From: Marsupella aquatica
Lineage: Eukaryota > Plantae > Marchantiophyta
NCBI GenBank assembly: GCA_973895155.1
Contig: OZ316899.1
Location: 1,325,573 to 1,389,572 of the forward strand
Length of the DNA: 64,000 nucleotides
Direction: 5' to 3'
A program made the translations under genes and the position numbers. Numbering within the stretch: the stretch's first letter is position 1; every line of letters begins with the position of its first letter. This document shows positions 19,744 to 59,621 of this stretch, piece by piece. The notes under the pieces are model-generated. The model worked only from the letters and a program-made list of their open reading frames with translations, ran no database searches and had not been told where the DNA came from.

Positions 19744-20625
19744 TGTCACGTCGTCGGCTACGGCCTTAACTCAGACTTCAGCTTAGACGGGCACATCCCT
19801 CGTAAATTTGAGGGTTCGGGCAGGAAGGGAAGCATGTAATGCACCTTATTCTCGTAAACTAGCGCTAAGTGCGCATACTGCTAAATACGGACACCTCCTA
19901 GGTATGGTTTGTGTTCCGCCGCCGGAACGTACCTTAGTCGATAGCAGGATCGACCCCGGCTTAAGGGCTTCTAAGCCTTCGTGCTGTCCGCCTTCGATCC
20001 GGATTCGATGATACAGGTCCTCAACCCGTGCTCGCAACCACTTACCCACAGGCTGCACCCTGTGCACGTCTCGGGTAGTGCGTTCGGCCTGGCGCTGCCA
20101 CCCGTATACGAGAAACCCACACACATACACGCGCACATGCATACAATCTCGATTTACACGAAGGAAAATGATGGGAAAGGATTTTACTACAAAGGGAACA
20201 TATGCGTACACTTAGTTGACCCGACAGCCCCGGAATGAACAGGTTCAAGGCCGAGGGTGCACACTACAACGGAGCCCGGCTCCGCACTCGCCCGACGAGC
20301 TTAGTCCTACCCCCTCCCCTTGGTACTCTTTCATTCCCAGAGGTCGGGACTCCCCGCACATACCGCGGACGTCCAACTCTGCAACTAAAAACCCCCCTGC
20401 CTCTACCGAGGGGTGCACTAAATACTAAGGGACGAGGGATGGGGTGTCCTCTCGCCGAAGATTCTAACTAAGCTGACAGTCAGGCCGGAAAATGGCTGTG
20501 TCTTATTAGAAGATCCTAATCTACGCAGACTGGACAGCATGGCAGCGCTGCTGTACCTAAGGCAGGTGCCTATCCCAAGAGCTTGACTAAGCCAGTCCTA
20601 ATCCTAATCTATTCCTACTCCGCTG

Positions 20626-23269
20626 CTAATGCCTGGCACGCTTGCCAGAGCCGCCCGAATGGGAGCGGCCATCCCGCTGCCTTCGAAGCCTATCTTTGTC
20701 CGCCTTGAGGAGCTGGACCTGGTCCAGCAGAGATTCGTTCTCTCGCCTCGCCGCGTTCGTCTCCTCTGCTGCCTCCTGACATGCCTCCTCCAGCTGCTGG
20801 GCGTCGCTCGTCAATTTACCCGCCAACTGGTCCTGCTTCTCGGCCTCGGTTTGGAACCGCGCCACCTCGGCCTGCAGCGTGGCTATCTCCACCGTGTCCC
20901 GCTGGGCCCGTTCCTCGGCCTCCTCCAGGTCTTTCTGCCAGGTGACGGTTTGATTCTTCAAACTGTCAATCTGGTTCCGGAGTCGTGTAATCTCGGCCTC
21001 GTTCCCAGCTTTGGCCTGTTTGGCTAGGGCGGTAAGAGCGTGCGCCTTTGCTAACAACTCATCGGCGGCTGCAACCTTGGGTCGTAGTTGCAGAAGCTCA
21101 GCCTCTTGAGCTGTAACTTCGTTCTTTAGGTACACGGACTCCACCCGGTACCGCTCTATGCTCTGAAGGGCCTCTGACTGGGCCCGACCTGCCTTTACTA
21201 CGGCAACCAACTCCTGATTGAAGAAACAGGCTACCTTCCGGGCCATGAACTCCCCGGTATCCCGGGCAATTTGATGAGAGAAATCTCCCAGAAGCCCGTT
21301 CAGAAATGTACCCGGTACGAAGAGTTCTGGGTGGTCCAGGTTGTGCCTGTCCGGTAGTTGGGCACGGGCAGACGTCAACACGCGCGGGGGCTGGGGCAGT
21401 GACGTCCAGCCCTGGGGACGTAGTGTTGGAAGGGGCTGGAGTGTCCTCCTGCACCAATGTCCGGTTCTCCAGAATAGCCACCGGTGGGTCTTTGGGAGAC
21501 CCGGGCTCGGGTAAGATCTCCGCCGTACCGACTTCTCTACTTAGCTCGGCTTGTTGGGTTGCATCAACGGTTGTGACAACCGACCCATCCGGTACCTCCT
21601 CGGTTACGACTACAGCTACTTGTGGAGGTGGGGTGGGTGAAGCTGGCGTGTCCGCTGGACTTCGGGCCTCGGGTTGGGGCCGTCTCTCCAAGGCCGGGAA
21701 AACCCACCTAGCTGGGACCAGCTTTGTAACGTTGACACGGGGAAGGGTTCGTCGATCAAACCGGGCGTACCACTCAAGAATGATCTCGATGTGGCTAGCA
21801 AAATACGCCTTCCCGCCAATGTACAGCGTCTTCCTTTGCCGCTCCATCTCTTCATGGAATTTCTTAGCGAAGTACGACGCCCACTTCCTAGGTCAATAGT
21901 TCTTGACCTGGATAACTTGGGCGGCGGAGATCTCCCCCCGGGGTTCCATCATGTGGAGGGCGTACCTCTGGAACTCCAGTCGCTCAGCTATCTCGGGGAT
22001 GAGGCAGGTCTTCATCACGAACCCGTTGTCCACTGCTCCCTCTGAGGGAAAACTTGAAGATTGGTACTTGGCTCCCTTGCCCCCGGGAGCCCGTGATTCG
22101 ACTCGATGGTCACCTTCGGGTAACCCGAAGATCATCCTGAGCCGTTCTTCCGTGAGGGACATACTCCTTCCCCGCAGCCGAGTATGTTGACGCGCGTCGT
22201 CATAATTCCTGACGAACTCCGTCATGTCCTGCCCGTAGTACCTGCAAGTGTTCCAGGGGAGGGAGGCGAGGTGCTCGAATCCTTGAGTCTTCAGGTACAC
22301 TGCATGCTTGGGATGGAGGATGTTTTTGTGAACATTTTCCCCCATGCGGTGCATTGTCACCTTGGCTACGGCTACCGTGGCCAACGGTAACCCGGATGCA
22401 GTGGTGGATTCCTTCCTCTTCTTCCCCCGTGACTGGCTCAGGGAAGGTGACACTTCCCCATCCTCCCGATCGGGCCTGGGTAGTGCCACTGCCGTTAGTA
22501 ACGGGCCCGGGGCGGCCATGGTCACCATGTTGTCTGCCGGGGCCGCTCCTGGGGTCAGAGCATGGGGTGGGGACGATATAGTGTCGGCCCCCTGAGCGCT
22601 TGTTCCTCTGGGCCGCCTGGTCAAGGGTGGGGTAGCCTCGCCGTCATCGCTAAGATCCACGACGTTGATGACGGAGCGTACTTGTGCTGGTTGGGCGATC
22701 GGTGGTGGGGTTTGGCTAGGCTGCGGTTGAGGCTAAAGCTGAAGTTGAGCTTGAGGTTGCATGGGTACGGGTACGGGTACGGGTTCGACTGAGTTGGTCA
22801 TGTTGGTTGATGGCCGAGTTCCCATGAAGCTCTGTAGGTGCTGGTAGAAGTTCTCCGAAGCGAGTGCAGACAACCTTGTCGAACGGGTAGTGTTGGACTC
22901 GCTATTGATGATAGCCCGAACCTGAGCAGGGATGTGGTTGAAGTGATGTCGTTGAAAGTCGATCGTACCCAGGATATTGAAGACCTCGTCCGGAAGCCGA
23001 AGCAATGCTTCCCAGAAACCGATATATTTGTCTCCGTTGAAGAAGTACCCAGATACTTTTGCTGGTCGGTAAAGCTCGCTCTGAGACGGGTAGTCAAAGT
23101 TAAGGATGTAGTGGTGTCGTCCTGCTAGGCGGATGGCTCTCTCGTACTTGCGTTCGATTTCGTATCGGCGCGGGTTGGCGTGTTTTAATGAGTGGGCCAA
23201 GTGCCTTCCGGTAGATAGGAACTGCGTCCAGAATCGAATGGCCGAGCTGGAGAGGATCGTGTGCGACAT
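20626..23269 (-). pseudogene. Family-1 unit-encoded protein (~880 codons reconstructed): N-terminal domain, Pro/Gln linker, conserved LPW/FGLPxG domain, C-terminal coiled coil
   Basis: ORFs 22733-23269, 21893-22660, 21098-21847 and 20626-21381 are colinear pieces whose lesions fall at different places in copies B and C. Confidence 0.8.
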
Positions 23270-23370
23270 TCAGAGGAGATAGTAGTGGCGACTTAGAGCA
23301 AACGAGAGAGCTGGGGTCGAAGCTGGCGCGTGGACTGATGGACTGGTGCACTACAAAGGGTTGGCTCCCC

Positions 23371-23377
23371 TTTTATA
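23371..23377 (-). promoter_or_regulatory. Putative TATA box of the family-1 unit
   Basis: TATAAAA about 100 nt upstream of the ORF ATG; conserved at 45172 and 45530. Confidence 0.6.
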
Positions 23378-23735
23378 CCTTGAGGGCTTGTCGATCCCCC
23401 GACGTCTCCTCGACGCCCATAGGCTGAACCGCTCACGGTTGTGGTGTACCGGCCACTCCACCGGTCTGAGTCAGCGCGTGTCAGTGGCCGCTTCTTAAGT
23501 ACGTTATACGGACCCGAGGGAGGGGCCCCTCCACGCTCGTAACCCGGGTGTGCGAATAGCGACCCACCGCCAGTCCGAACCTGAATTCCCCCTTATTGCC
23601 TAATGATGTCCTACCCATAATGATTACCTAAATACTGTCGTTATGCTAATAATAGCGGCCTAAAACACTCCTAACGCGCGTGCTAAGCGCAGTTAGACCG
23701 AATCACTCATTAACCGCCGTACCAGTGGCGTCACA

Positions 23736-25189: not shown

Positions 25190-25379
25190 TGTTAGAATAT
25201 ATTTAACCCTTAGTCCATATGATGATACAAAGAGGTATGCAATACCTAGATATAAAGAGACACAAGACTAGGAGAGGGTAGTTACAACTACCCCAATGTA
25301 CAACATAAAATAAGCCACATTGGCTTAAAGGAAAATCAATCATCTTTTGTTGGTGTATGTATATTTTCATAGTTTAACA
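25190..25379 (+). repeat. 5' LTR of copia element 2
   Basis: TGTTAG...TTAACA; 189/190 identical to 30573-30762. Confidence 0.97.
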
Positions 25380-25391
25380 CGTTATCAGCAC
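25380..25391 (+). promoter_or_regulatory. PBS complementary to the anticodon arm of tRNA-Ile (half-tRNA priming)
   Basis: CGTTATCAGCAC directly after the LTR; its reverse complement GTGCTGATAACG matches eukaryotic tRNA-Ile(AAU) GUGCU-AAU-AACG if A34 is inosine. Confidence 0.7.
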
Positions 25392-25537
25392 GTGATTTTG
25401 CTCCTCCAACAACTCTCGAGCTACTCATAGGCCTCTTATGAATTTTTTCCCTATTCATGTGAACGAAGCATCGAACAAAATTCCCCAAGACACATTTCTT
25501 TTCTTTCGCCAAGTACACCACAAAATTTTCATCGACT

Positions 25538-28500
25538 ATGACAATATTGGAGAAGCTCCAATTCCCATTGCTCGCAACAGATGGCGACAATTATTTATCT
25601 TGGGCACAGAATACAGAAATTGTTCTCAACATGAAAGGCCTCGGCGACATTATCTTAGCAGATATCAATGGCACATTACAACAAAAGGCTCAAGCACTGT
25701 ATATCATTCGCCATCACCTCGTTGCCGAACTACAACTTGAATACCTTACAGAGTTTAATCCCCGAGCCCTATGGGACGCTCTCAAATTGAGGTTCGACCA
25801 TCTGCATCTAATTTCCCTACCAGCTGCATGAAATGAATGGATTCATTTACGAGTTCTAGACTACCCTACAATTGCCAAATTCAATAGCGCCTTATTTCGG
25901 ATAACTGCTCAGCTAGCAGCCTGCGGTGAACCAATCGATGAAGCAGCAAAGATTGAAAAGACTCTTTCTACATTCTCGGCAGTGAACATGCAGTTATCGC
26001 AGATTTATAGACAACGCCATTTCACCCAATTCTCAGATTTGATTGCAGTCATGCTCCTAGCTGAAAAGAATGACCTCCTCCTTTTGAGGAACTCTCGCGA
26101 GCGACCACCAGGCACGCTTCCTAAACCGGAAATACAATTCACGAATACCAATAGAGGTCATTCCTCTTACAATCGACCTCGTGGCCAATTTAATGGCAAT
26201 CCAAGTCATTTCAATAAATTCCACAAGAGACAACAATTTCGCACAGACAAAGGGAAAATCTACAAGCCTCCCATGAATTCTTGGTATCGTAACCCCAATC
26301 ATATGCCAAATAATCCTGCACAGGATTATCCCACAAATAATCAGCCCAAGTGTTTCCGTTGCGGTGGGACAGGGCATATCCAAAAGAATTGCAGAGTTCA
26401 AGCTCACCTAGTCAAACTATACCAGGCCACCCTCACAACATCCAACACCTTAACAGCCGCACATCACTTGGAGATCGATGACGATCTCTCCAAATACACG
26501 GTTGCACCTCCCCCACCAGAGGTTCATATAGTATCCCATGAAACGAATGACACATCTCTCGCCGGTGCTGATATTTGCATTCTTGACAGCGGCACTTCTC
26601 ACTCAATCCTAAAAGACAAATGTTATTTCCAGCACATATACCCATCAAATAGACCTGTGACTACTATCACAGGTATAAACCAATTAGAGGAAGGCCATGG
26701 ACCTGCCCAACTTGCCCTTCCTCAAGGCACAACCATTAAAATTGCATCTGCCATATATGCCCCACTCGCAACACGGAACTTACTAAGTTTCCATGATGTC
26801 CGCCAAAACAACCTCCATATACGCTCTGCACCCGACAACCACATAAACTCTCTACAGATTTTTTGAGAAACTGATAATGGCCCTATTACACTAGAGACAT
26901 TACCACTCCATCCCCCCGGCGTTTATGCCACTAAGATCATGTCTTACAATTCCCAACGACAACAATTATCCCCCACAGAATTATGGCATATCCGCCTCGG
27001 CCACCCAGGCCCAGGGATGTACCATAAAATTATGAAGGACACCATTGGCATACCAAAAGGAGTACACCCATCCACGAAGTTAGACACTTGCATCCCCTGT
27101 GCACAAGGCAAATTTATCACTCATCTAGCTTCCACTAAAAACACCTATCAAATCCCTGACTTCCTCTCACAGATCAATGTGGACGTCTGCGGACCTATTG
27201 ATCCACCGAGTGGACCATTTAGGTTTTTCCTAGTAATGATATGCTCCTCAACCAAATGGTCCTCTGTTTCTTTAATTTCCACAAGAAACCTTGTCTTTGC
27301 CAGACTGCTAACACAACTTATACGTCTTCGCACTCAATTCCCTGACTCTCCTACCAAAATAATTCGAATTGATAATGCTGGCGAATTTACATCACCAGCA
27401 TTCGATGACTTCTGTCAAGTCCTGGGCATCACAATTCAATACTCAGTACCATATGTACATTTCCAGAATGGTACTGCAGAGGCATTAATAAAACATTTAC
27501 AGATGATCTCGAGACCTATGCTATTACAGACACAACTCCCACTTACAGCCTGGGGACATGCTATACTCCATGGCGCTGCACTACTGCGATATAGACCATC
27601 GGCTTTTAATATTTACACACCACACCAACTAGCATATGGCTCTATACCAGATATTACACACCTGAAAGTGTTTGGCTGCCTTGTTCTAGTACCCATTCTT
27701 GGCCCCAAGCACACCAAGATGGGACCACAGCGTCGACGTGGCATATATATTGGCTACGACTCTCCCTCGATAATAAGGTATCTCGAACCCACCACTGCTG
27801 ATGTGTTTCGAGCTCGATACCAGGACTGTAAATTATGTGAAGAAATCTTCCCAACACTTCTAACTCCAGCACAACTCTCCAAACAACCTGTCTCAACACA
27901 CACATTAGAATGGACAACAAAGGATCCATTCTGGAATGATCCTCGTACTCAATTGACAAACGATGAAGTGAAACGCATTCTGAATCTCCATCAAATTATG
28001 GAGAAAATACCTGACGCATTTAATGATGCTACAAATGTAACGAAATCACATATAGAAGCAGCCAATACTCCTATGAGAATTCATATACCAGATACTTGAG
28101 CCACAGACCTCGCTCCCAAGGCTAAGCGAGGTAGACCTTCAGGTTCCAAAGACTCTAGACCACGGCAAAAGACACCTGTATCAACACATTTATCCTTACA
28201 ATTACCGCCAATTATACAGGATGACAATGAAGAAATCTCCATCCACTATATGCATACTGGACATTTATGGCATCGCAATTTAACTAAACCAGATGAGCAT
28301 TTTGCTTTTCTTATATCCCAGATATAACTAAAGATTTACCAGACCCTTGGACAATTAAAGAAGCACAACAACGACCAGACTGGCCCAAATGGAACTCTGC
28401 TATTAACTCCGAGCTTGATTCTCTGATATCTCGTCAAGTTTTTGGAGAACTCCGAGTCGTCCCTGTTGCACAACACCTAACTGGGTATAGGATTATATTG

Positions 28501-30209
28501 ATACGCAAACATAATGCCGCAGGTGAAGTAATCCGCTACAAAGCCAGACTTGTGGCTAGAGGCTACACGCAAATATATGGCAAAGATTACGACCTTACTC
28601 ATTCACCGGTCATGGACTCCATTACCTACCAATATCTGATTGCTTTTGCCCTCACACATCAAATTCGTATGCATCTTATGGAGGTGGTAACTGCTTACCT
28701 TTACGGTATACTTGATACTGACATACAAATGCAAGCTCCACCTGAATTAATTCAGAGGGTAATTTTCCACATTAAGGGGGAGCATACAACCTCCCCAACC
28801 CCGGACCTAAAGTCGGGTATTGTAAGATTGTCCCTACACAGGACTTTAAGGACCACCTCATTCACTCAGGCCAGATGATACCTGCTGAAATACATGACTC
28901 ATCAGCGGTCCAAAATAACAAGGCCCAGCAAATTGCTAATGGTGAACAGTCAGCGGATTCACCATTGAATTATACTGACTTACTCGCTGAGGTAAATCCT
29001 GTTCACCACATAATCAATAAAGCCAAGAAATCAGAGAAAGCATTTGCTGTACAGGTTCTTAGGTCACTCTATGGTTTAAAACAGAGTGGTCGCATCTGGT
29101 ATAAACATTTCCGTGCTGAGATGCTTGCACTTGGTTTCGTGAATGAGGACATTGCTCCTTGCCTTTTTATCAAAAGACATGGCACTGAATTTATAATCAT
29201 AGCCATATATGTCGACGACATTAACCTAATGGGTACTAAACTCATTATGGATCAAACCATTACCACACTTAAGAGCATATTCGAAATGAAGGATATTGGT
29301 CAACCCCTATTTTGTATTGGCATTCAATTCAAACATTTATCCAGCGGTATTCTTATTCATCAATCTACATATACCAGAAAACTATTAAAACAATTCAACA
29401 TGGACAAAAGCTATCCAGTCACGACACCTATGGAAATTCGATCTTCGAACACATCCAGAGATCTATATAAGCGCAGGACCGAACACGAACCAATCTTGGG
29501 CCCAGAGAAACCTTACCTCTCTGCTATAGGAGCCTTGATGTACCTGGCGAATCAAACTCGCCCAGGCATCTCTTTCGCTGTCCACTTGCTTGCCCGCCAC
29601 AGCTCCCAACCGACTATTAGACATTGGAATGGCATTAAGAGGATACTGCGCTACCTTCAAGGTACAATTGACACTGGCCTCTATTACCCTAAAGATGTGC
29701 CTAACGAATTGATTGGTTACGCAGATGCAGGTTACCTTACAGACCCCGATGATGCGAAATCCCAGACGGGATATGTATTTCTACAAGGACATACAGCCAT
29801 ATCCTGGAAAAGTACCAAGCAGACTTTGACGACCACATCCTCCAACCACGCGAAAATCATAGCACTATACGAAGCCAGCCGAGAATACCTGTGGCTTCGA
29901 CAGCTTATCAATCACATCCAGTCGTCTACAGGCCATGCAATTCTTACCAAGCCTACTATCATCTACGAGGATAACAAGCCTTGTGTTGATCAGATAGTTA
30001 AAGGCTTTATCAAGGGCGACCGAATCAAACATATTGCCCCCAAATTTTTCCACACGCATGAACAGCACGGGGACCAAATCAACGTTCAATGGATACCTTC
30101 TAAAGATAATCGTGCTGACCTTTTTACGAAGCCCTTACCTCACATTCTTCACAAAGCGCATTCGACTGGAATAAGCCTCCGTAGATTATCGGACTTCACT
30201 GCAATCTGA
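25538..30209 (+). pseudogene. gag-pol: Copia gag-pol polyprotein with several stops and frameshifts
   Basis: MTILEKLQF..GDNYLSW gag; CFRCGGTGHIQKNC knuckle; ILDSGTSH protease; LWHIRLGHPG..CIPCAQGK and IRIDNAGEF..QNGTAE integrase; YKARLVARGY, SLYGLKQSG and YVDD RT; GYADAGY..HIAPKFF RNase H. Confidence 0.95.
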
Positions 30210-30563
30210 CTTCCCCACCTCTTCCATAAACTTCTTACTCCATTGCGACACGACAATACTTTTTTTCCCCACGACACCTTCTCTGTTCTATGCATATTCT
30301 ACTGAACGTATGTTCTCCATACTCGACCATTTCAACACATCCTATCGAATACTCGTTTAGATTTAGCCATACATGATTACACTCCTGCCCACCTATTCTT
30401 ACTAGTTTTAACTCATTACATGTAAGGTAGTGACACTCTTTTTACCCCAGAAGAAAGCAGGGGGTTTTTAATGAGGTCATACCCCAATGAGTTTTTCCAT
30501 TATATTCAGAACTAGGCTTAAATTTATTTCCAAAATGGTTACTTTAAGAAACATAAAGTAACC

Positions 30564-30572
30564 AAGGGGGAG
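30564..30572 (+). promoter_or_regulatory. Polypurine tract
   Basis: AAGGGGGAG abuts the 3' LTR. Confidence 0.9.
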
Positions 30573-30762
30573 TGTTAGAATATATTTAACCCTTAGTCCA
30601 TATGATGATACAAAGAGGTATGCAATACCTAGATATAAAGAGACACAAGACTAGGAGAGGGTAGTTACAACTACCCCAATGTACAACATAAAATAAGCCA
30701 CATTGGCTTAAAGGAAAATCAATCATCTTTTGTTGGTGTATGCATATTTTCATAGTTTAACA
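30573..30762 (+). repeat. 3' LTR of copia element 2
   Basis: Direct repeat of 25190-25379. Confidence 0.97.
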
Positions 30763-31543
30763 CAAATGACGTTTAACATACCAAGCTATTGTACAGTTCG
30801 ACTGTCAAAAAAGCTCCCCTCAATTTGAACTTCCTTCACTACCTTGGCTGTGTTGCCAACAAAGCTCCTTTCGAACCTCCTCCACTGACTGCCGATGTCT
30901 AGCTTCAAGCTATTTCACAATGAAAGCTCCCCTGTATTCTCAATGGTTTGAACGAGAGTCCTCTAAATCAATTGCGACCAATGTGACTCAATGCGTCCAT
31001 GGAAGGTAGACCTCAGATTATCTTGCTAGCCATCGTTGCTCTCCCTTCCTCACCCGACATTGAAACGTTCACTACTTTCTGATTTCGGCAACTATGGTTT
31101 TCAAGCTCGGTTTTCACCATCAAAAAGTTTGAGCAATTGTGGAATTCTGATAAAACTTGCCGCGTCTGCAAGTCCTTACCACTATTGTCATTGTCGCGGC
31201 TAGGATGGAAGGACTCAGAGTCCTTGTTTTCAAATAGTCCTTGACAACGCGGGATAATAGGACATAATTATCGTCCACTTTCCAAAGTCAATTCAAGCAG
31301 GCTACTTCCTCGAGGACATTTATTAAACACTTCTCGCATGTAAGTACTTTATGACTTAAATTAGAGTTCTAGGCTACTAAATCCAAAAATGGTTATAATG
31401 GAATCATTTCTCAATCATTTAATTCTAGCCTTTGATCTGTGAATTTTCAATCTTGGCCATTGAGGGATATGTTGCACATTTAATGCAACATGGAAAGGAC
31501 TTGAGTCCTTGTCTAGGAGAAAAAAGGACAAAAATGGTAGTCC

Positions 31544-32660
31544 TCAATCATGCAATCCACCAAGTCCTACTCCACTCCAATCAGTGTGTAGCTGAAATGG
31601 TCGTCCCGAAACGGGTCTTCTCAAAATAGGTGTTGACACCAATCTTTCCTTCAATTCTTGGAAAGCATGCTCTTGGTCGTCACCCCAAATCCACTCCTGG
31701 TCCAACTTAGTGAGTATAGTTAAAGGCTTGGCAAGTTGGCTAAATCCTTTAACATACCATCTATAATAGCTCGCCAATCCCAAGAATGCACGAACTCTAC
31801 TCGCATCAGCAGGACGAGGAATCTGTGTAATGGCCTCCACCTTAGTCTCTTGCACGCCCAATCCTCCTGGGTAGATAGTGTAGCCCAAATACTCAATTTT
31901 GTCTTGGAAGAACTTACATTTGCCAGGATGGAGTTTCAACCCATGTTCTCTCAATCTCTCCAACACAATCTGCAAGTGTCTCTGATGTTCTTCCACCGTA
32001 TCAAAATAGACCAAAATGTCGTCAATGTAACATCTCACAAAATCCAAACCTGCAAGAATTTGATCCATAACTCTTTGGAATTCAGCTAGTGCATTCTTCA
32101 ACCCAAATGGTAAGAACAACCACTGATACAAATGATCTTTGCCATAAGAATCAATTCCCCAAAATGTTGTCTTGGATCTATCAGAATGCCTAATTGGCAA
32201 CTGATGGTACCCCGCCTTGAGGTCCAACGAACTAAATATCTTTGCATGCTCCACAGCATCAAAGATCTCCTCGGTGTGGGCATGGCATATTGATCAGATT
32301 TTGTCTGACGATTAATAGGTCGATAATCACCACACATTCGCCTATCTGTGTAATTGCCATGCACATCCTTCTTGGCTGGCATCACTGTGGCAGATGCATA
32401 CTCCCCGTATGAGATCTCCACCAAACCAGCCTCCAACAAATCTTGAGTTCTACTCTGGATCAAAGCCCTCTTCATGTCACTATATCGATATGGTCGTCGA
32501 AAGATTGGCGCATCACTAGCCAATTTGATTTGAATACCAGGACCCTTCAATGTCCCTAAATCCTTCATACTAAATGCAAAACAATTCCAATAATTCTTCA
32601 AGAATTGATGCATGCAACGGCTCTCCCTCCTGGTCAACTTAGGACCAATCTGTGATTGCC
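31544..32660 (-). pseudogene. Gypsy reverse transcriptase and RNase H start
   Basis: Canonical gypsy RT motifs including YIDD; one frameshift near 32270. Confidence 0.93.
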
Positions 32661-32661
32661 A

Positions 32662-32850
32662 ACTCTCCATCAAAGCTATGACATCTTCCTTTGGAGTTGA
32701 AGAGGCCACAAGCCGTGGGCTGTGACTCTCCATCAAAGCAGTGACGTCTTCCTTGGGAGTTGAAGAGGCCACAAGCCGTGGGCTGTGACTCTCCATCAAA
32801 ACTATGATGTCTTCCTTTGGAGATGAAGAGGCCACAAGCCGTGGGCTGTG
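32662..32850. repeat. Three 63-bp tandem repeats (21-aa ESHSPRLVASSTPKEDVTALM) in the MTase-RT linker
   Basis: Units start at 32662, 32725 and 32788. Confidence 0.9.
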
Positions 32851-33049
32851 GATGGAAGAGTCAGTCGCTCATTGCTATTCATCAATAGTTTGAGCAACCT
32901 TCTTCTGCTCAACAATATGTTCTGCCTTGGCCAATCCTGCCATAGGTCTATCAATTGTTTGCTCGCCCCCAGCTGTGACCGCTACTGTCTCAGTAGGCCG
33001 CAAGCTCACCAATGGACGATCTGTAACATTAGAACTATGCATTATTTTG

Positions 33050-33880
33050 CAATTGTTCAGCTAATCCCAAGCTGATAATCCAAGTCAAGCAATTGAAATC
33101 CATGGCTTGACCAAGGACCTGACAACGTGAATGCTCTGACACCGAGGCCACTGCCGTGGTGCTGGTAAAAAATCCTATAGCCCGCTCTCTCTCATTAGTG
33201 GTAGGCTCTACTAGTCATTGTAGAGTTGTATCCCACACAAGTCCAGGGCCACTTGCTCAAAATGCGTATGAAGCAGAATGGCTCACAAAAGTGGGTAATG
33301 CACAACGCGGACGCCCAACAACATTCACCACTGCCAATGGTGGTCGATCAGATTGGGTAACACTTTGTGCACGACGCCCTGGATCCAAAATACTATCCAC
33401 CACTAAGGTTGTTGAGCGAGGTACACCATCAAATGCTCGCTTTAAGACCTCACATGGTATCAAGTTAGTCCACCATAATCGTGGGCGATGTGCACGAGAA
33501 CCCACACGTGCAGCATCCAATAACACAGCAGGTCCAATCCAAGATCGCACTTGATGAACACTAGCAACAATTCGATGATGATCATCACCCAATAGTGGGA
33601 CATTCTCCAAAATGTATGTAGGAGAATGTGTCTGATGCATTTGGAGATGGCGCAACACCCATAACATCTCCCAAAATAATGCAGATCTTGGATCATGAAA
33701 TCCATGTCCAATTCCAGCCCGAGATTGACCCTGACATGGCCAACCCGCAATCACCAAATCAATGGGGCCAACACAATCCAAATGATCCGCCCCCAATAAT
33801 GAAATATCATCAGGCAATGCATGCTGATAGCCACGAACGGCATCCACTGGCAACAAATGTGGATAACGTTCCACCACCTA
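33050..33880 (-). pseudogene. C5 cytosine DNA methyltransferase domain inside pol (motifs IV, V, VI, VIII, IX, X; motif I absent)
   Basis: DLVIAGWPCQGQS (IV, catalytic PC), DPRSALF (V), YILENV (VI), AHRPRLWWTN (VIII); past two in-frame TGA stops, EPTTNERERAIGF (IX-like) and VLGQAMD (X-like). Confidence 0.88.
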
Positions 33881-34282
33881 CTGCCACACAATAGGAGTGG
33901 TATCCAATGGTGAAAGGGTCACCGGTCCATCTGCAAAAGACTGTTGTGCTCCTGACTCCGGTGTAAAAGCATGACGCCAGGCATCATGTATCAATTGGGC
34001 CGCATTTTGTTGCAAGGCCTCTCCAGTACCCCATACTAGTGCCACAATAGTATCAACAGGTAATCACCCATCATGTGTTCCTCATGTGGCTCCTCCATTG
34101 CTGGAATATCTACTGCATGTGCATTACCTTCAATCAACTCATCAGATCCAGTAATCAAACTATTAAATGCTGCCAAAGACAATGGTGCAGATTTAGGACC
34201 TCCCACAGGTCCACTAAATTGCACTGGAAATTGGCTCAATTGAGCATCTCTAGATTGCCAATGGGGTTGATACGACACCAAC

Positions 34283-34579
34283 TCATCCCAAATCAAGAAC
34301 AAATCCCATAGGATAAAGTACTGTACATCCCACTAACACATCATATGATTCAGCCTTAGTCAAAATAGCTTGAGCCTCGATCCGTGAGTTATCCTTTGGA
34401 TGATCCTCTTGAATCCTAAGTTCAAGTGCTCGTCTGCTGATATGTTGTTTGGGTGTAGGTCCTCCCAATGAAGTCTGAATGGGAAAGGGACACTCCTCCA
34501 AATCATTTGGACGCAATCCCAATCCTTGTATCGCAGACTTACCCAACATCAAGGGCTGAGCACCAGTATCCAGTAACAC
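34283..34579 (-). pseudogene. Gypsy aspartic protease
   Basis: LLDTGAQPLMLG and YDVLVGCTVL motifs. Confidence 0.85.
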
Positions 34580-35285
34580 TCATTCTGGCTGGTATATCGC
34601 TCCAAAAGGCCCAACTAATTGGAAGATACCACTCCGATTATCCAATGATACCACACTAGGTTTAAACCTAGTTCTCTCAAAGGCAGGGCGTGCTGGTAAC
34701 TCCATCAACCTCGCCGCTGCTGCTTGCCATGTTTCACCACTAGCAATAGGTGGAATCAACTCCACAACTTCAGATTTATGCATTGTCTCTGCACGAGAAG
34801 CAACAACTGGAGTGTCTTCACATAATGTGGCCACCAATCTGAACACTTCAGCTGGACTAACTCCCAATGTCATATTTTTTGCTGAAAATAACGGGGGGCA
34901 ATGGTCATTCAAAGTTGTCATAGAAAACACAAAGCGATTCTTCAACTCCAAAGCAAATTTTCTCTGATTTTCTTCCAAAGCGATATTTTGCTGAAAGTGA
35001 TTCTTCTGTCCAAACTCAATCTTCTTCAACTTCTTCCAGAACTTTCTTTTAGAGATCACAACAGGTTCAAGGATGGTTGATTGCTTTGAATATATTGGCT
35101 CTAAATGATGTCAAAAAGTTTAAAAGTTTATCAGTTTTACCACATATCTCCATATTGCCATTCCACATAACCCCCTTCTCAAATGTGAAGCGACCTCGCA
35201 AACACCATCATCTTCTAGGGCCACGCCTTATTTGGGGAGGCTGTGCCAAAGTATAAATATCCAGTATAGTATACTCAATATCACT

Positions 35286-35393
35286 TGTCATGCGGACACA
35301 CATCCATACACAACTCACATCGCGGCACACCATGTAAACAAGAAAACAGATAATCACACAATACACAACACATGTACGCCAAAATCCATAACA
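35286..35393. repeat. 108-bp LTR-like repeat, copy 1
   Basis: TGTCATG...CATAACA ends; about 94% identical by eye to 35777-35884. Confidence 0.75.
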
Positions 35394-35776
35394 ATCTCTC
35401 GCAAAACGGGACCCCGCTGCAAGGTATCACTAGGTCGAGCCAAACTCACCCGCTAGCCATGCGGGACTCCAAGTCTATACATATAGCAGAACCCTGCCAA
35501 TGTTGCTCTACATGCCAACCAATATACACTCTCTCTCTCTCTCACCATAGCCACACTCACATGAGCTCTACTAGTGCCGAGAGGCTCAACTTGGAGGAAT
35601 GAGGAGCTAATCTCTCATTCTCCAAGGTATACCCCCATGGCACAAAGACATGGTAACCTGGGTGAAGAGGTCACCCCTACCAGGTGACCTGCTATGCCAG
35701 GTCACCCTCCCAAACTCACAACACAATCATGTGCAACCAACAAAGTTGCAACTCAAATGCAACATGGGGTGACAGC

Positions 35777-35884
35777 TGTCGTGCGGACACACATCCATAC
35801 ACAACTCACATCGCGACACATCATGTAAACAAGAAAACAGATAATCACACAACACACAACACATGTACGTCAAAATCCATAACC
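35777..35884. repeat. 108-bp LTR-like repeat, copy 2 (candidate 3' LTR of the INT-PHD element)
   Basis: Direct repeat of 35286-35393; preceded on the minus strand by purine-rich AGGAGGGC (PPT-like) and ~170 nt after the PHD stop codon. Confidence 0.65.
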
Positions 35885-36057
35885 GCCCTCCTAGCTGGTG
35901 GTTAGGTCCCGCTAACTACAGCTAGCCCAAAAACTAAAAGGAAGTATACACCTTTTGGGTGCACAATCAAGAGGCCGGGTGCAAAGGAGCCCCATTGTTA
36001 ATCGCCTGCCTACAATCTATACTACCTAATGAGTTTTATGCTAACTGAAGCCACTCT

Positions 36058-36096: not shown

Positions 36097-39000
36097 TGTG
36101 ATACCTTGCCAGGATCACAAAGTACCTAGTTAAGCCTAAAATAATGGCTAAATAAAAATTAGTTAGATAGTATAAGGTAGAAATAAAGACCAAAGCCGAT
36201 TACAACACGTCGTGGGGAGGATTGCGATAGGATCGGATCCAACGGTTGTGATTAAGCGGGATTAGAGTTATGACCTAATCTGGGCTTGATCACACAAGCC
36301 ATCGGGAGGCGGCTTTGCGGGGAGGGGACCGACACTCTGTGTACTTGCTCATTCTCTTGTCGCTCGGGACCTAGGAAGGCGGAAGCAGCTGCCGATCAAT
36401 TGAGGAAGGTGGGTAGGGAATTGCTCAAGCTCCTCTTTCATTCGGTGGAATGATCACAGTGAATCAAGCGGCTAAGTTTTGGGGCTGTTTGCTTGAAGAA
36501 GCACGGCAGCTCATACCAACTTACAAAGTCGTTGAGCCGGAACAAGCAGCAAGGGAACGGGTGGAGCTCGCGCGGTTATGGGGAATTCATAAGACGGCTT
36601 TTGTGGGAACAGAGGAGGTACTCAAGAAATTCTTATGGATTCCCACCAGTGCCAAGCTTGACAAGTTGCTGATCAAAGAGAATCGAGTCATTGGAATTGG
36701 GAGGCGATTAAGAGCGCTGGGCAGCCGGTTTGGGAGTTGAAGGGTCACACTTTGGCTTGGACCAAGGAGGCCATTTTTGGAGAGTTTTCAGGGACTGAAG
36801 AGATGAAGCGAAAGGGTAGTTTGGCGTCTACAACACCAGCTAAGCGGAACCGGTCTGAGAGGCAGGCCAAGGTCGTAGCCGTGCCAATTTGAGATAGGGC
36901 AGTAGAGGATAAGTTTATGGTGGGTTGGGCGGATAGGCTACATGCCAACTTATAACTGCAGTTTGCACGAGAAGAAGATGAGGTCTTCTGTGCTATCCAG
37001 GATAACAAGTATTTTGGATACATGAACAACACCGGCTTAGAGGGATTCATCCGGTTGCCATGGCGATTAATTGACATACCAGAGAAAGATCTATTAGACT
37101 TTGTAGGATACTGGGAGGCTTCTTCTAACACGACGCTGATGTATGGGAAGGTGGTGGAATTAACGCCAGCACTAATTGAAGCCATCTTTGCTCTTCCACG
37201 AGGGAATAAAACTAAGGTGGAGCAGCGAAAGACATTGCCGGATAACCAAATCCGATGATTTCCAGGGCCCTCTACTAAGAATGGGTTCTTTAGAAATCAA
37301 TGCACTAATGCACATGTGGGGCAGTTGATTCATTTCTTAAGAGTCACGCTACACTGTACATTGCCAAGAGCAGATATCGGCAAGGCCCAGGTATTTTTTG
37401 GGGAGAATATCGATTCAAGTCGAGACTACAATGACTATCTCTTAATGCAGTTAAAGAAGGCATTAAATGAAGAGAAGCAAAGTATTGGGGAAGGAGAGGT
37501 ATCCAGACTAGGGTACCATCTGCAATTACTTTGCCAATTTGCAAGAAGCCAATCTTTTGCACCCGTGCTACCGCTACAAGAATGGATGCCAATCACAGCA
37601 CCCTTGGAGGAGGACGAGGAGCCCCTAAACAAACGACGGAAAGAGAAGAGGCCGACAATACATGCAATTCAGGGATGGGAGAATTCCCCTCTCAAGGTGG
37701 TAACATATGATGTGGTGAGAAATCCATTGCAACGGCCTACTCGTAATAATCCATATGCAGGTATTCAACTGGTAGAGAGGAAGATGACTACCGAAGAAAG
37801 AAAGAAACGGGATGAGCAAATGGATTCGGAGTCAGAAGATGGAAGCCGAGGCCGAAGTCAGGAGAGGCCAGTCCTTAGAGCTTCTAGCCGGGCCCAAGTG
37901 GAGGAACCTGTGGAGGTAAATCAACCAGTGGCAGCCCAACAATACTCAGAGGAGGAGATTGGGGGCTTTGCAGACTGAGGAGGCCGGCATACTCGATAGT
38001 CAGGTTAATGTGGATGACTACGACGATGATTATGTCAATCATGGGGAGAGGCCGGTGCCGGGTGTGAGAACGTTGGAAAGGTTTTGTAGAAGACTTCCCT
38101 CAGTATTTTATGGCAAGCCGGAGGATCAGAAAACCCCAGAGTCTCCGCCACCGGATGTGACACCATTGGAATTTGACCGGATGAAGGAGGCCGAGGCAGG
38201 TTTGAAGGAGAAACTCGCCAAGTGGAAGGTCCAAAATGACATACAAGAACGACAGCTACCAGGTGGTGATTGGTCGAAGGAAATCAAACGGCTTAGTGAG
38301 AAGCAGGCCGAGCCTCTCACTGACTTTGATCAATTATGGGCAGATTATCAAACGGAGAAATTGCAAAAGTATGCCAAAGCAGGACGTGGATCACCGACTG
38401 GACGGTCTCCCGCTAGTGGCGTGGTAGCCGAGAATACTGACATGCCAAAACTGACATAAATATTGTCAAGGGTAACTGAGGGTAAGACAATGCAGTTGGT
38501 TGCGGATCTGGCCAAGACATTCATTGGGCCAGCAGGTACTTATGGGATGCCTCTCAAGGCCACTCCAAAAGAGGTCGAAAGTATGGCCGCTCACATTTGT
38601 GGGATTGTTCCTACAAAGGCAGCCGTAGTCGAGATAAGTAATGCCGATGAATTTGGAGCTGCGGTAACAGGTTCAGACATAGGTACCGCCACCATGGACT
38701 ACCGGAATGTGAAGCCGTGGAAGATCGAGACAGAACGTATTGGAGAGTAGGCTTGGATGGAGGAAGTGAAGGCCAACACTATCCAAGCCGTTTCCTAGGA
38801 GGATGCTACCGATGCCGAGGCCAAGGCCGTTAAACCAAGACCCGAAGCCGGGGAAGCCGAAGGGATCAAGCCGGAGCCGATTGCAGGAGGAGGTGTAGAG
38901 TCGGAAGATTTGGGCTTACCCCCGGTCATCTGACAATTAAGGAGGGCCAGTCATTGGTTGGAAGGAGGACGTGGCGGTAGCAGAAGGGCTTGGGCCAGAA

Positions 39001-42000: not shown

Positions 42001-42967
42001 TGCTGATCCTTGGAGCTAGTAGAGGAGAGGGGAAGGGTGTGAGTGCAAAAGTAGTCAAGGGGACTACCTCTCTAGAAGTGGAGAGTTGAAACTACTTATG
42101 TATGGAGTGATTAGACATTGTAAGCACATTTCAGAAGTTTTGTCAATCCTTTGTGACCCTGGTATGACATGGAGCAGGTAGTAGGTAGTTTCTTCGGAGA
42201 AAAGCCACTTAAGCTCCTTGATAAGTGTTTGACAGCGATTGTTAATTAGCAGGTTTATTGCGGTGGAAGGCCGTGATTTGTGGTTTTGATTTCCGCCGAT
42301 TCCCCTAGATGCGCTGCAAGGATAAAAACCTGGGCAGCGTGGCTTGGGGGGCTTTTTCTAGTCAAGACTCTAGTGTAAATCAGTATTACTAGCATAGGAA
42401 GCTCTTGGCTAAATCTAGACCGCGGATTATTAGTAAACCACAAGTTCCCATAGATTTTTGTGCAATTGCTTGAATTGAGTTGGCCTTGTTGCCTAGTTCG
42501 CAGATTCTTGCCAATCATGGTGTTGTGTGTTATGATATTTGTTGCTTGATCGATTTGAGTCAGTTAGAGTGATACTGTGAGCTAATATGATTGCATTGTC
42601 TTGATTGAAGACTGCCAAACCAAACTCTGAGAGAAAGGTGAGGATTGAAAATGTTTTGTTGGTTAAAGTGTGGGTTGAGTCGGTCTGAGAAAAACCTTCA
42701 GCCGGCTTAAGAGATTAAGCTGTAGGGGTACATTCTGGGGGCGGAATACAAACATACTCGACGAAGTCAATTAAGGAATTAGGCATCTCAGCAATACACA
42801 ATTCACAAGCCCATTGAAAGAATCGGTCCAGCATAGTGTGGATCAAAGAAGTAGACCGCGTTTCCAAGCCAAATAGTAGCCAAACCACCATAAGCGGACC
42901 ATAAGTAGTGGTTCATAGCCAGTTGCGGATGGTTCTTGGGGTTAGAGGTGTTGGGAAACGCACCACA
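36097..42967 (+). mobile_element. Giant solo-LTR-like unit, family 2, copy D (6871 bp, probably with nested sequence)
   Basis: TGTGATAC...GCACCACA ends; perfect TSD GGAAC (36092-36096 / 42968-42972); termini and ORF homologous to 53107-57818; no gag/pol. Confidence 0.88.
36450..38932 (+). pseudogene. Family-2 unit-encoded protein, fragmented
   Basis: ORFs 36450-36740, 37022-37258, 37316-37978, 37959-38459 and 38463-38750 align in order with the protein of 54020-57708 (FWGCL..AARER.ELARLW; GLE.F.RLPW; PGVRT..ESPPP..LPGGDW). Confidence 0.82.
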
Positions 42968-43957
42968 GGAACTGAATCAAGAGGTGGCGTCAAACACGCC
43001 AAGTGCCAACCTCTTGAGCAACCATCACAAATCAACATGGTTGCAGCTCCACGGGCGGATCCACACAACATACACCGTAAGCTTGCAGGTATCACTGCTA
43101 GACTAGGATCAATGCTATCATCAATGTTTGAAAGGTGACAAGGTGCACAGTTGCGCACATGATCTTTCCAAACCATACCATCACGACCTTCTAAAACCAG
43201 AATGTCTGATGACAAAACCTTCTGCACTTGTAGAATAGTACGTCTGGCAGTGACATCCAAAGTAGTAGGTGCTGTCTGTTGTAGATACACATAGTCTCCA
43301 GAATGAAATTGCCTGATGCTAGGGCAATATCCTCCTCCCCAAATAGTGGCATACCTCAAAGTATCCCGATGCTGCGCAATAGCTAAGTTCTCAAATGCCA
43401 TGGGCATCACTCTCCAAAACAAGTTTGCCCGTTGAGAACAAGCTCGCATCCACATGTCAGGGTCATCCAACTGCAACACCTCAACAACCTCCCTTTGAAT
43501 GGCTGCTAGCAACACTGGCTCCCTACCATAGAGCAACAAATATGGTGAAAAGGATGCAAGAGATGCTTGCTTACTGAATCGATATCCCATTGCTAACCAT
43601 GATAGCTGGATATCCCAATCATTCACGTGACCCTTCTACAAGCCATACTTCCGCAATCCTCTCTTTACTATCTAGACAACTCTCTCTGCCAATCCATCTG
43701 CCTGTGGATGATCCCTAGACGTCGTACGGTGATCAATCAATGCTTGATCACACAAGGCCTAAAAATCTCCACAAAACTCAGTCCCCTGGTCAGTCAAAAC
43801 CTCAGCAGGAGCACCAAAATGGCTCAATTCACGGTCCAGAAAGGCATAGGCAACTCCTTCACTACCTTTATCTGGCAATGCAACCAACTCAATCCATTTA
43901 GAAAAGTGCTCCACCATCACTAAGGTATAACGGTTGTGACGTCTAGTCAATGGTAAG
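42968..43957 (-). pseudogene. Gypsy integrase core and C-terminus with PHD finger
   Basis: LVMVEHFSKWIELVAL..VLTDQGTEF core, SPYLLLYGREP, then CMLC..ICDGCSRGWHLACLTPPLDSVP. Confidence 0.9.
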
Positions 43958-44861: not shown

Positions 44862-45577
44862 GCGCGTTAGGGATATATTAGGCCGTAATTATTAGCATAA
44901 CGACAGTATTTAGGTAGCCATTATGAGTAGGAAATCATTAGTCAATAAGAGGCGTTCGTGTTGGGCTGGCGGTGAGTCGCCATTCGCACGCCCGGGTTGT
45001 GAGCATGTAATGGGCCCTCACCTTTCCCCCTCGGGTCCGTATAACAAACTTTGGGAGGTGGCCACTGACACAAGCTGACCCAAACCGGCGGAGTGGCCGG
45101 TACACTGCAAGCGTGAAAGACTCAGCCTATAAGCGACAAGGAGGCGTCGGGCGATCGACGAGCTTCTAGGGTATAAAAAGGGGACCGATCCTTGGCAGTG
45201 CACCAGTTCATCAGTCCACGCGTTGGGGGTATCTTAGGCCGTATTTATTAGCATAACGACAGTATTTAGGTAGCCATTATCAATAGGAAATCATTAGTCA
45301 ATAAGGGGCGTTCGTGTTTGGGCTGGCAGCGGGTCGCCATTCGCATGCCCGGGTTGCGAGCGTATAATGGGCCCTCCACTCTTTCCCCTCGGGTCCGTAT
45401 AACAAATTTTGGGAGGCGGCCACTGACACGCGCTGACCCGGACTGGCGGAGTGGCCGGTACACTACAAGCGTGAAAGTCTCGGCCTATAAGCAACGAGGA
45501 GGCGACAAGCAATCAACGAGCTCTCAGGGTATAAAAGGGGGCCGATCCTTTGCAGTGCACCAGTTCTTCAAACCACG
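44862..45577. repeat. ~358-bp tandem duplication of the TATA-containing promoter segment in copy B
   Basis: Two copies joined at a CACGCG microhomology; TATA at 45172 and 45530. Confidence 0.88.
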
Positions 45578-45634
45578 CGCCAGCTTTGATCTTAGTTCTC
45601 TTGCTTATCCTTAGTCTCCTTCCATCTCCTCTTA

Positions 45635-48212: not shown

Positions 48213-49127
48213 CGGAGGGTTAGGCTTAGAATAGACTTAGAAGTAGCTAAAACAGGCTGGTAGGACAAGTGCCGGCCAGAAGATAGCGGCGCTGACACAT
48301 TAGCCAGCCTGTGTAGAATAGGTTAGACTAATAGGACAAGCAAGCACCAGCTTAGTAGGGATATAAGTTAGCGTAGATTTGGGCACGAGGCCAGGCCGGT
48401 CCTCAACCCTTAGTATTTAGCGGACCCCCTAGTAGAGGTTAGGAGGGGGATTTTAGACTCAGAAGTTGGCCATTCGTAGTACGCATGGGGAGTCCCAAAC
48501 TTGGTGAAGTACCGGAGTACCAAGGGGAGGGTATACGACTAAGTTTGCTGGGCGAGTGCGGAGCTGGGCTCCGTTGTAGTGTATACTCCTCGGCCTTGGG
48601 CCCGGTCGTTCACTAGGTGTCGGGAAATGAATGAAATCCTTTCTCCTTAATTCCTTCGTATAAATCGAGATTTCTGTTATGTATGTATGCATGTATGAGT
48701 CTCGTGTGCAAGTATCAATGTCGGGCCAAACATGTTATGCCAACCGTGCACGGGGTGCAGGATATGGGTACGGGGTTGCGAGCCCGGGTTGAGCTCTTGT
48801 ACTAACGGATCCAGATCAAAGGCGGTAACACAAAGGCTTAAAAGTCCGTGAGCCAGGGTCGACCCCGTGTCGACTAAGGTACGTTCCGGTGGCGGAACAC
48901 AAACTATACCTAGGAGGTGTCTATACATAACATTAAGCGCACTTAGCGCTAGTTTACGTGAATTAGGAGCATTCCGTGCGTCCCTCCCTGCCCGAACGCT
49001 CATATTCACAAAGAATGTGCCTGTCTAAGCCAAAGCCTGGGTTAAGGCCTAGGCTGACGACGTGACAACGGGCCAGCTTCGACCCCAGTTCTCTCGCTTA
49101 TCCTTAGTCGCCTTCTATCTCCTCTGA

Positions 49128-52795: not shown

Positions 52796-53106
52796 CCCAC
52801 AACCCACGGCCTGTGGCCTCTTGTAGTTTGGTTGCGTGGGTAGTCACCCACAGCCCACGGCCTATGGCCTCTCATAGTTTGGTTGTGTGGGTTGGCACCC
52901 ACAGCCCACGGCCTGTGGCCTCTTGTAGTTTTGGTTGCGTGGGTAGTCACCCACAGCCCACGGCTTGTGGCCTCTCATAGTTTGGTTGTGTAATTTGGCA
53001 CCCACAGTCCACGGCCTGTGGCCTCTTGTAGTTTGGTTGCGTGGGTAGTCACCCACAGCCCATGGCTTGTGGCCGATTCATCTTGGTTGTGTGGGTTGGC
53101 ACCCAC
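52796..53106 (+). repeat. ~51-bp tandem array, left part (6 units plus start of a 7th)
   Basis: CCCACAGCCCACGGCCTGTGGCC.. units alternating two tail subtypes; interrupted by 53107-57818. Confidence 0.92.
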
Positions 53107-58042: not shown

Positions 58043-58059
58043 TAGGGTTCTGGAATCAC

Positions 58060-59621
58060 GAAGTCTTCCAATAATGCAAAGCTACTTGGTGAACAACGGA
58101 CCGGTTTCACTCGAAGTGGAGTGCAGTTTCGGCCAACAACATACGTAGTGTGATATGCAAACGATGCGTAATGCCACATTGTTTACACCTTTCATGACAT
58201 GGAAAGGGTTATTTCAGCATTTGGAGGGTCCACCCATGGATGATTACCATGAGTTTCGGAAGACCCATTTGGCTGATATTGAGATATGGAGACAACATTG
58301 GTCACCAAACTATGTGTCCATCACTTACGGCACAAGTGCAGTTCTCAACCTGTTGCCCCGGCTGTTGCTTCTTCTAGTAGCACTAGCCAGAGTGGCACTC
58401 CACCAGTATCCACTATTACTCCTACCGGTGAAATTGTGGGTGGGAGTGGAGTTGTGCCAACATTTAACCTTGTGGTGAAGTTCTTTGATGTGTTGAAGCA
58501 GAACTACCAGGGTGTGAGAACTGATAAGTTGAAGGGTCTTCAAGATTTTCAGCGCAAGACTGGAGAGCGTCTACGCGAAGCATACACTTGTATGCAAAGA
58601 TTAATTACAGTCACCAAGGGAGTGACAGAGGCCCAAGCAGTTCAATTTTGGTATGCAATTTTAGATAGAGAGTTGCGGCGTAGAGTAAGAGACGCCACTC
58701 TGTTGAGGGATTCAGATCCCACATTGGCTATTGTTTTTGCACGAGCGCATTGAACTCAATATGGTGAATGAGAAGGTGGTGACTTCCGGATTTGTCAAGG
58801 AAGGCTCACCAAAGGTTGCATCTACACCCACACTGCAACCTACTGTAAGGAAGAGCCAGAGGGAGAAGCCTACAACACGGGAATCTACTAGTCAGAGACC
58901 TATGCCCTCCTATGCTGGATAGCAATCAGGATGTTGGACTTGTGGTGGGGATCATGCACAAAGATATTGCCCGGATAATAGAGGGTCCGGAGGGGCATCT
59001 ATGCCCGATCAACGATTATGTGATCATTGTGTAGTTTCTGGTCACACCAAGGATAGGTGTTTTATACTCCATCCTGAACTACGACGGGGAGGATCGCGTA
59101 CGTATGATCAGGGAAGAGGAGGTAGAGGTGGTGGTCGTGGCCGTGGTATGCCATATGCAGGGAGACATGGAGGTGATGCTCCTGCCACTATCATAGATCC
59201 AAAGGATGCAAAGATTGCTCAATTGGAGCAACAACTAGCTGCCATGGCCAGTTCTCAAGTTAGACCCACTTCTGGTGATGGAGCTTCTACATCTTATGGA
59301 GCTAACGGAGACTTGGCCACCATGGGATTCATGTGTGGCACTGCCCATGTTGATGCATTGGCAGCTTTGACTCAAGGAGCAACCAAAGCCCTTGAGCCCC
59401 GAGGAGCAATGGTAGAGTTGGATCCTCAAAGGGGGGAATCTCGTCGTCAAACAAAGCTTCCCCAATCGTTTACATTGTTAGAGGCAGTTCAAACTACCTC
59501 TATGAACCCGGTTAAGACAAATCCAAGTGTGGATAAGTTGGTGGAATCGGATGATGTTGCAACAAGGATGGCAAGTACCTTGATGGGGGCGGCCACAAAT
59601 ATTGTGCCTGATGTCGGATGA
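58060..59621 (+). pseudogene. gag: Ty3/gypsy-type gag with two Cys/His knuckles, truncated before protease
   Basis: ..KLKGLQDFQRKTGERLREAY.. gag-like core; CWTCGGDHAQRYC and CDHCVVSGHTKDRC knuckles; RGG-rich nucleocapsid segment. Confidence 0.7.

Follow-up and report, generated by a model that had tools for sequence, protein, structure and literature searches.

Introduction

Retrotransposons bearing a DNA methyltransferase (DNMT) have a precedent in algae, as a first-pass annotation of the DNA considered here rightly stated (PMC5890265). In KnitGypsy-Dnmt3 of Klebsormidium nitens the methyltransferase lies in the Pol frame of a Gypsy element with DIRS-like repeats and shows a Ka/Ks under 0.2; the Klebsormidium enzyme produced no methylation in yeast, a result that its authors called inconclusive, and retrotransposon DNMT3s of dinoflagellates carried out de novo CG methylation in the same host (de Mendoza et al. 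2018, PMC5890265). SymbioDIRS-Dnmt3 of Symbiodinium likewise joins a Dnmt3-like domain to a retroelement with split repeats (PMC5890265), and the EpiLTRs are LTR elements combining a DNMT with a chromatin-reader domain, which their authors set apart from the streptophyte Gypsy-DNMT3 elements (bioRxiv 10.64898/2026.05.21.726589). Later papers refer to 'streptophytes (Gypsy-DNMT3)' and, in their accessible portions, leave land plants unnamed (bioRxiv 10.64898/2026.05.21.726589; PMC12344493). What DNMTs do for the retrotransposons that carry them has been a question since 2018, the sole plant-side example described being an alga whose enzyme gave no signal in yeast.

Here we describe a fragment of such an element, and its relatives, from a window of 64,000 nucleotides in the liverwort Marsupella aquatica. 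The family resembles KnitGypsy-Dnmt3 in carrying a Dnmt3-like domain in a Gypsy element, in placing it between protease (PR) and reverse transcriptase (RT), in its DIRS-like split repeats and in the purifying selection on its DNMT, with a ratio again under 0.2. The K. nitens protein KFL_009030040 (P0217) has the order PR-DNMT-RT-RNase H-integrase and is 44% identical to the window copy over 194 residues. The two differ in that K. nitens-type proteins and their metagenome kin run from DNMT into RT without a stop, whereas the present family has a conserved stop at this point, and in that the hosts of the present family include land plants. SymbioDIRS-Dnmt3 is a DIRS element with a tyrosine recombinase, whereas the present family has a protease, a DDE (rve-type) integrase after RNase H and a PHD finger; a DIRS identity was ruled out by the presence of this integrase instead of a tyrosine recombinase. 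EpiLTRs differ in having a DNMT4-related DNMT, a DAM domain and a chromodomain (bioRxiv 10.64898/2026.05.21.726589). Troyka was also rejected, requiring CG...CG termini and a 3-bp duplication (PMC12440569) where our relatives show TG...CA and 4 bp.

The species table of PMC5890265 includes Physcomitrella and Selaginella, and the word Marchantia is absent from the accessible parts of its text supplements. No passage on PHD, Marchantia or methyltransferase was found in the accessible portions of a classification of plant LTR elements (PMC6317226), and those of PMC11244446, PMC11982613, PMC10952607 and PMC5784723 added nothing on the present family. Our literature search, with subscription journals and Repbase mostly outside its range, found no publication on bryophyte copies or on the stop between DNMT and RT; the supplementary trees of the 2025/2026 papers may already include Marchantia copies. 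As far as these searches reach, the kind of element is known from an alga, and its land-plant hosts and expression layout are new.

Structure and decay of the window copy

Six-frame translation of 34894 to about 31560 on the minus strand shows, in order, a protease, a linker, a C5 methyltransferase, the three 63-bp repeats, an RT and the beginning of an RNase H (Table 1); the RNase H is truncated and both ends of the copy are cut. The motifs that the first-pass annotation had listed in order on one strand, from protease through C5-methyltransferase motifs IV to X and a repeat linker to RT and RNase H, are all present, and the methyltransferase that it placed between protease and RT was recovered by a PF00145 search of the unbroken stretch 33877-33260 (E 6.4e-11, 42.7 bits, curated cut-off 22). 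Catalytic motifs IV (PC), V, VI (ENV), VIII, IX and X can all be recognised, and the protease matches Asp_protease_2 weakly (E 0.0036), below the cut-off.

Table 1. Features of the methyltransferase-bearing Gypsy family in the window
Feature	Position	Strand	Evidence or remark
End of gag-PR linker and aspartic protease, with stop and frameshift	34290..34894	-	72% identity to P0179 residues 164-374
Protease motif LLDTGA	34576-34559	-	six-frame translation
PR-DNMT linker, frameshifted	33881..34289	-	tblastn with P0179
DNMT3-like C5 methyltransferase, internal stops	33050..33880	-	PF00145, alignment to P0179, family profile
Motif GWPCQG (motif IV)	33745-33728	-	
Motif DPRSALF	33694-33674	-	
Motif ILENV (motif VI, ENV)	33613-33599	-	
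Motif RAHRPR (motif VIII, RPR)	within 33517-33470	-	
Motif ERERAIGF	33193-33170	-	
Motif LGQAMD	33115-33098	-	
C-terminal tail of Gag-PR-DNMT frame, frameshift near 33041	32878..33049	-	match to P0179 C-terminus; indel relative to other copies
In-frame stop TAG CAA TGA, predicted readthrough site	32869..32877	-	same position as C-terminus of P0002 and P0179
Three 63-bp (21-codon) tandem repeats, frame-preserving, between stop and RT	32662..32850	-	repeat family D15
Reverse transcriptase, frameshift near 32272	31826..32661	-	PF00078, E 1e-31
RT motif YIDDIL (YIDD)	32029-32012	-	
RNase H start, truncated at about 31560, where homology ends	31560..31825	-	PF17919, E 2e-10
RNase H motif LHTDWSG	31591-31571	-	
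Family-member 3' end: coding end, polypurine tract, B-GC-A-B split repeats	35286..36021	-	
B repeat copies	35883-35777 and 35392-35286	-	
Integrase and PHD finger, same family	42946..43956	-	70% identity to Sphagnum-like elements; PHD E 1e-7
gag and zinc-knuckle fragment, same family	58143..59610	+	opposite strand to PR-DNMT-RT

Motif I, which binds SAM, is absent from this copy, 50 residues having been deleted around 33880 relative to the closest relative (P0179). The copy is interrupted by stops at 33880, 33259 and about 33220 and by several frameshifts, and such lesions are spread over PR, DNMT and RT. Because motif I is deleted and stops and frameshifts are present, the window copy is, judged from its sequence, a dead pseudogene that cannot be active. 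The CpG observed/expected ratio is 0.44 in the fragment, 0.68 in a young copia element of the window and 0.28-0.98 across relatives, a measure that cannot tell self-methylation from host methylation.

In relatives the enzyme is better preserved: motif I is kept, with LDLFGG exact in 50 of the 60 loci covering it, and the catalytic PC is kept in at least 72 of 77. A family profile of 28 sequences ranked DNMT3A first (2.5e-22), followed by DNMT3B, DRM2 (6e-10), DNMT2 (4e-8) and HhaI (3e-6). The structure model of an intact relative (P0004, pLDDT 94) found DNMT3A as its best Foldseek match (E 1.7e-18, TM 0.83 by target), all 31 of the 31 matches listed being DNMT3A/B/C or their complexes, so that the best PDB matches by sequence and by fold are alike DNMT3A/B. 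Since the motif order is not rearranged, the family enzyme is by these comparisons DNMT3-like and not DRM-like. A viral donor was considered and rejected because matches in IMG/VR were few, weak and partial (6 phage methyltransferases, E 1e-4 to 1e-9).

A family of liverwort and Sphagnum elements

Protein searches returned 57 homologues of greater length and 171 of about the same length, with 120 of these 171 listed. Among the matches listed, named homologues come from Marchantia polymorpha, M. paleacea, Calypogeia fissa, Riccia sorocarpa and three Sphagnum species, the best named plant homologues being 60-70% identical. By this homology the window copy belongs to a multi-copy Ty3/Gypsy family common to liverworts and Sphagnum mosses, with the full order gag, zinc knuckle, PR, DNMT, RT, RNase H (RH), integrase (IN) and PHD. 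The first-pass annotation held that a DNMT is not a standard domain of land-plant Gypsy elements; the present one is no oddity of its genome, since many relatives turn up in records from named liverworts and Sphagnum.

A metagenome scan confirmed 105 loci, of which 80 were kept. The nearest domains were PR upstream and RT downstream of the DNMT in 35 of the 80, and a further 41 are consistent with this order but have lost one side to a contig end or an internal deletion, making the PR-DNMT-RT order compatible with 76/80; the remaining four have RT-RH-DNMT-IN. This supports the DNMT as a regular domain of the family and not a one-off insertion. The 80 loci were chosen by their DNMT from a few related metagenomes, so members lacking the domain are invisible among them and the loci are non-independent. 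Two loci of the main, Sphagnum-like family (L004 and L007) share 91-92% identity with a protein from Sphagnum troendelagicum.

Contig depth offers a check that is less biased towards the DNMT. In run X1 depth was 31,000-53,000 in DNMT bins, 36,000-66,000 in PR and 27,000-63,000 in RT, against 340 in an adjacent unrelated stretch, and run X3 gave a similar pattern, with summed DNMT depth equal to that of PR and RT and about 100 times that of the adjacent stretch; depth of this kind is not a copy number, and both runs may include the window's own source. None of the 15 contig joints listed, out of 38, skips the DNMT. The first-pass annotation had also proposed a dN/dS comparison among copies, and this points to purifying selection: between lineages the ratio is 0.16-0.19 for the DNMT (six pairs with measurable dS, though near saturation; three further pairs saturated), compared with 0.20-0.37 for PR. 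On domain order, depth and substitution ratios, the DNMT is a regular family domain under purifying selection.

In a careful DNMT tree of 33 rows, made like our other DNMT trees without host DNMT3 sequences, the window copy groups with P0179 (97/99), and the pair is nested in a clade that also holds Calypogeia, Marchantia and the Sphagnum-like family (97/99), a placement that suggests a bryophyte or other seed-free plant as host. The sampled elements with a first frame ending after the DNMT all fall into a single clade of 14 rows (91/99), which stands apart from the Klebsormidium branch; a joint clade with the K. nitens elements received 88 in a quick tree, and in the careful tree the two are separate branches with the joint clade unresolved. 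Groups in the RT tree, which had no proper outgroup of DNMT-less Gypsy elements, agree with those in the DNMT tree.

Elements of the order RT-RH-DNMT-IN-PHD share the DNMT clade and the PHD-bearing integrase with the present family and form a clade of their own within the 33-row tree (99/99); they differ in that the DNMT lies between RNase H and integrase, in one frame. A profile search points to a very large clade, of which the best 150 clusters (50% identity) all score E below 1e-73, and most of these clusters with other domains show RT-RH-DNMT-IN(-PHD). This large sister clade takes in L072, L074, L077, L080, P0207-P0225 and many of P0229-P0375, P0207 being a transcriptome record. Since the DNMT occupies two positions in the polyprotein, it has either moved within the polyprotein or been captured twice.

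A conserved stop codon between methyltransferase and reverse transcriptase

Unbroken gag-PR-DNMT proteins are encoded by ENA, JGI and Logan contigs (P0180, P0203, P0037, P0040, P0041 and P0045), and intact natural Gag-PR-DNMT frames by P0011, P0180 and P0203. The contig-encoded proteins stop 65-183 residues past motif X, and a single in-frame stop separates the DNMT from RT-RH-IN-PHD, RT being in the same frame. The junction codon is a stop in all 52 metagenome copies that cover it (33 TAG, 19 TAA), or 41 distinct copies after merging near-identical ones, whereas other codons in the same 210-nt window are stops in at most 7 of 46 copies. By this frame structure the DNMT closes the Gag-PR frame in this lineage and lies outside the RT-bearing frame, which corrects the original description of a methyltransferase embedded in an RT-bearing pol frame; of the intact PR-methyltransferase-RT frame envisaged there, the continuous Gag-PR-DNMT part exists, and the continuation into RT is broken by the stop in 52/52 copies.

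The codon after the stop is CAA in 50 of the 52 copies, and CAA CCC follows in 46, all of the main Sphagnum-like family; other lineages have TAG CAA CCA (L014, L069) or TAG TAG CCA (L051), and the window copy has TAG CAA TGA. Plant viruses such as TMV share a readthrough consensus, CAR-YYA after the stop, and both SIRE1 and MuLV use in-frame stops (PMC2194720). The full consensus is matched in L014, L023 (with TAA) and L069, and CAA CCC and the CAA TGA of the window are incomplete matches. The resemblance to TMV, to MuLV gag-pol and to SIRE1 pol-env lies in the in-frame UAG with a CAA-type 3' context (PMC2194720), and the present elements differ from MuLV and SIRE1 in that the predicted readthrough stop comes after PR and DNMT rather than at a gag-protease or pol-env boundary. 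In every lineage examined, the codons that follow the stop share the frame of the sequence on either side. A stem-loop 3' of the stop is inconsistent (z of -2.7, -2.7, -1.7, -1.2, -0.6 and 0.0) with little covariation, and as a stimulator of readthrough is a lead only. From its conservation and context we consider it likely that the stop codon is read through.

Element ends and neighbouring sequences

Complete relatives start with TGTCA and end with ACA, giving TG...CA termini, and an exact 4-bp target duplication flanks 8 of the 11 copies with both ends; the other three comprise one cut by a contig end, one with a 3/4 match and one with a damaged 5' end. Four complete relatives have split terminal repeats of the form A-coding-B-A-B, in which B is separated from A by two additional bases, and six copies have the A-coding-B arrangement, which would arise by recombination between B repeats. 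The window holds a polypurine tract and B-GC-A-B end of this type at 35903-35286, which may or may not belong to the DNMT copy. At the ends of L030, L049, L052 and L070, and at 35777-35774 in the window, B and A are joined as CACGACA-GC-TGTCA, like an unprocessed circle junction.

Other pieces of the family lie further off. The integrase-PHD piece probably comes from another copy. The gag fragment breaks off at the very residue with which the PR fragment (34900-34894, minus strand) opens, with a 4-bp overlap, TGCC, and a single copy may have been split into these two by an insertion and an inversion of 24.7 kb; one exact contig runs across the gag junction, and others terminate at 59593 or 59607.

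Other sequences were noted elsewhere in the window. A young Ty1/copia element at 25190-30763 has 191-nt LTRs that are 99.5% identical, and at 45572-52648 and 19744-23678 a 3.5-kb unit occurs as a tandem pair (86%) and a third time in inverted orientation (77-80%), no convincing Pfam match being obtained for the long ORFs of this unit. Two related long ORF regions at 54023-57792 (minus strand) and 36417-38747 (plus strand), one stretch of which runs for 683 codons, are also without a Pfam match, and the latter lies inside a 7-kb insert by which a family member is broken in its PHD end. Two 51-bp tandem arrays (52785-53106 and 57817-58043), on either side of a long minus-strand ORF region, repeat the core of the 63-bp linker unit (CAGCCCACGG-C/T-TGTGGCC), a core that also resembles the sequence just 3' of the family stop codon. 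At 1169-1450 and 2556-3780 (minus strand) a Helitron helicase-like fragment lies next to a duplicated segment that weakly matches the SBP domain.

Discussion

Our favoured reading is that the window holds a dead Gypsy fragment whose active relatives probably make the DNMT at Gag level by way of a leaky stop and methylate their own cDNA before integration. With the stop placed after the DNMT, translation of the first frame in active relatives would yield Gag-PR-DNMT in bulk, and occasional readthrough would add the RT-RH-IN-PHD extension. By analogy with other LTR elements, the enzyme would be packaged with Gag and released by the protease inside the particle, in excess over RT. The nearest double-stranded DNA would then be the element's own cDNA, and there is about an even chance that this is methylated in the particle and that new copies arrive already marked. 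Copies methylated in advance could damp runaway transposition, or the cDNA could be disguised as host DNA, as has been proposed for algal elements. Klebsormidium-type elements encode DNMT and RT in one frame, and so a supply at Gag level is not needed everywhere.

The stop need not imply readthrough, and RT-RH-IN could instead be translated from a spliced RNA or from an internal start, with the DNMT still made alongside Gag. Splicing has to be weighed because an AG-GT lies a few codons 5' of the stop in four lineages (the Sphagnum-like family, L014, L051 and the window copy) and the TAG is itself a valid 3' splice site; two Marchantia gene models (P0010 and P0017) join across the DNMT-RT junction, although these are automatic predictions that conflict with one another. 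Ogre elements splice between PR and RT, a precedent that counts on the same side. A pyrimidine-rich tract before the TAG is, however, absent from L014, L051, L069 and the window copy, and the stretch beyond the stop keeps its frame in every lineage examined, the window repeats being exactly 21 codons long. An internal start could use the ATG two codons past the stop in the main family, but this codon is unconserved (GTG or AGG elsewhere). We therefore regard either route as improbable and retain readthrough as the preferred explanation of the junction.

What the enzyme acts upon is a separate matter. The PHD finger carried by the integrase across the clade could guide the DNMT in the nucleus to integrated copies or target chromatin, or the domain could have a DNA-binding or structural role, and no activity was seen for the Klebsormidium enzyme in yeast; but most copies keep their catalytic and SAM-binding motifs, and the stop would place most of the enzyme on the Gag product, away from the PHD-integrase, and we consider these roles unlikely, if slightly less so than splicing or an internal start. 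Since the window is a nest of shattered and nested elements, one might also suspect a host DNMT3 fragment or separate mobile piece inserted once into a single Gypsy copy. This is refuted by dozens of loci, and four named plant genera, in which position and linkers are shared, by the agreement of DNMT and RT trees and by a DNMT depth that matches PR and RT, and we give it next to no weight.

More broadly, and tentatively, an old and large clade of bryophyte Gypsy elements could have shifted a captured DNMT3 to the Gag frame with a leaky stop behind it, so that particles filled with DNMT deliver methylated cDNA; we hold this wider scenario to be somewhat doubtful as it stands. The position of the stop past the DNMT nonetheless yields a concrete prediction of where the enzyme should be found and in what amount, and because relatives occur in Marchantia polymorpha, for which genetic tools and methylome data exist, the role of the DNMT becomes testable. 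In moss, CHH and de novo methylation are the work of the host enzyme DNMT3b (PMC6453930), and the Marchantia methylome paper describes five host DNA methyltransferases (PMC5784723). The transposon DNMT of the present family is found in many gene models of Marchantia, and annotation must reckon with transposon DNMTs among those models beside the five listed host enzymes. If the wider scenario were true, model liverworts would carry many uncounted DNMT3 genes, and new copies of land-plant transposons would from the start bear silencing or self-mimicking marks of their own making, independently of host RdDM and DNMT3.
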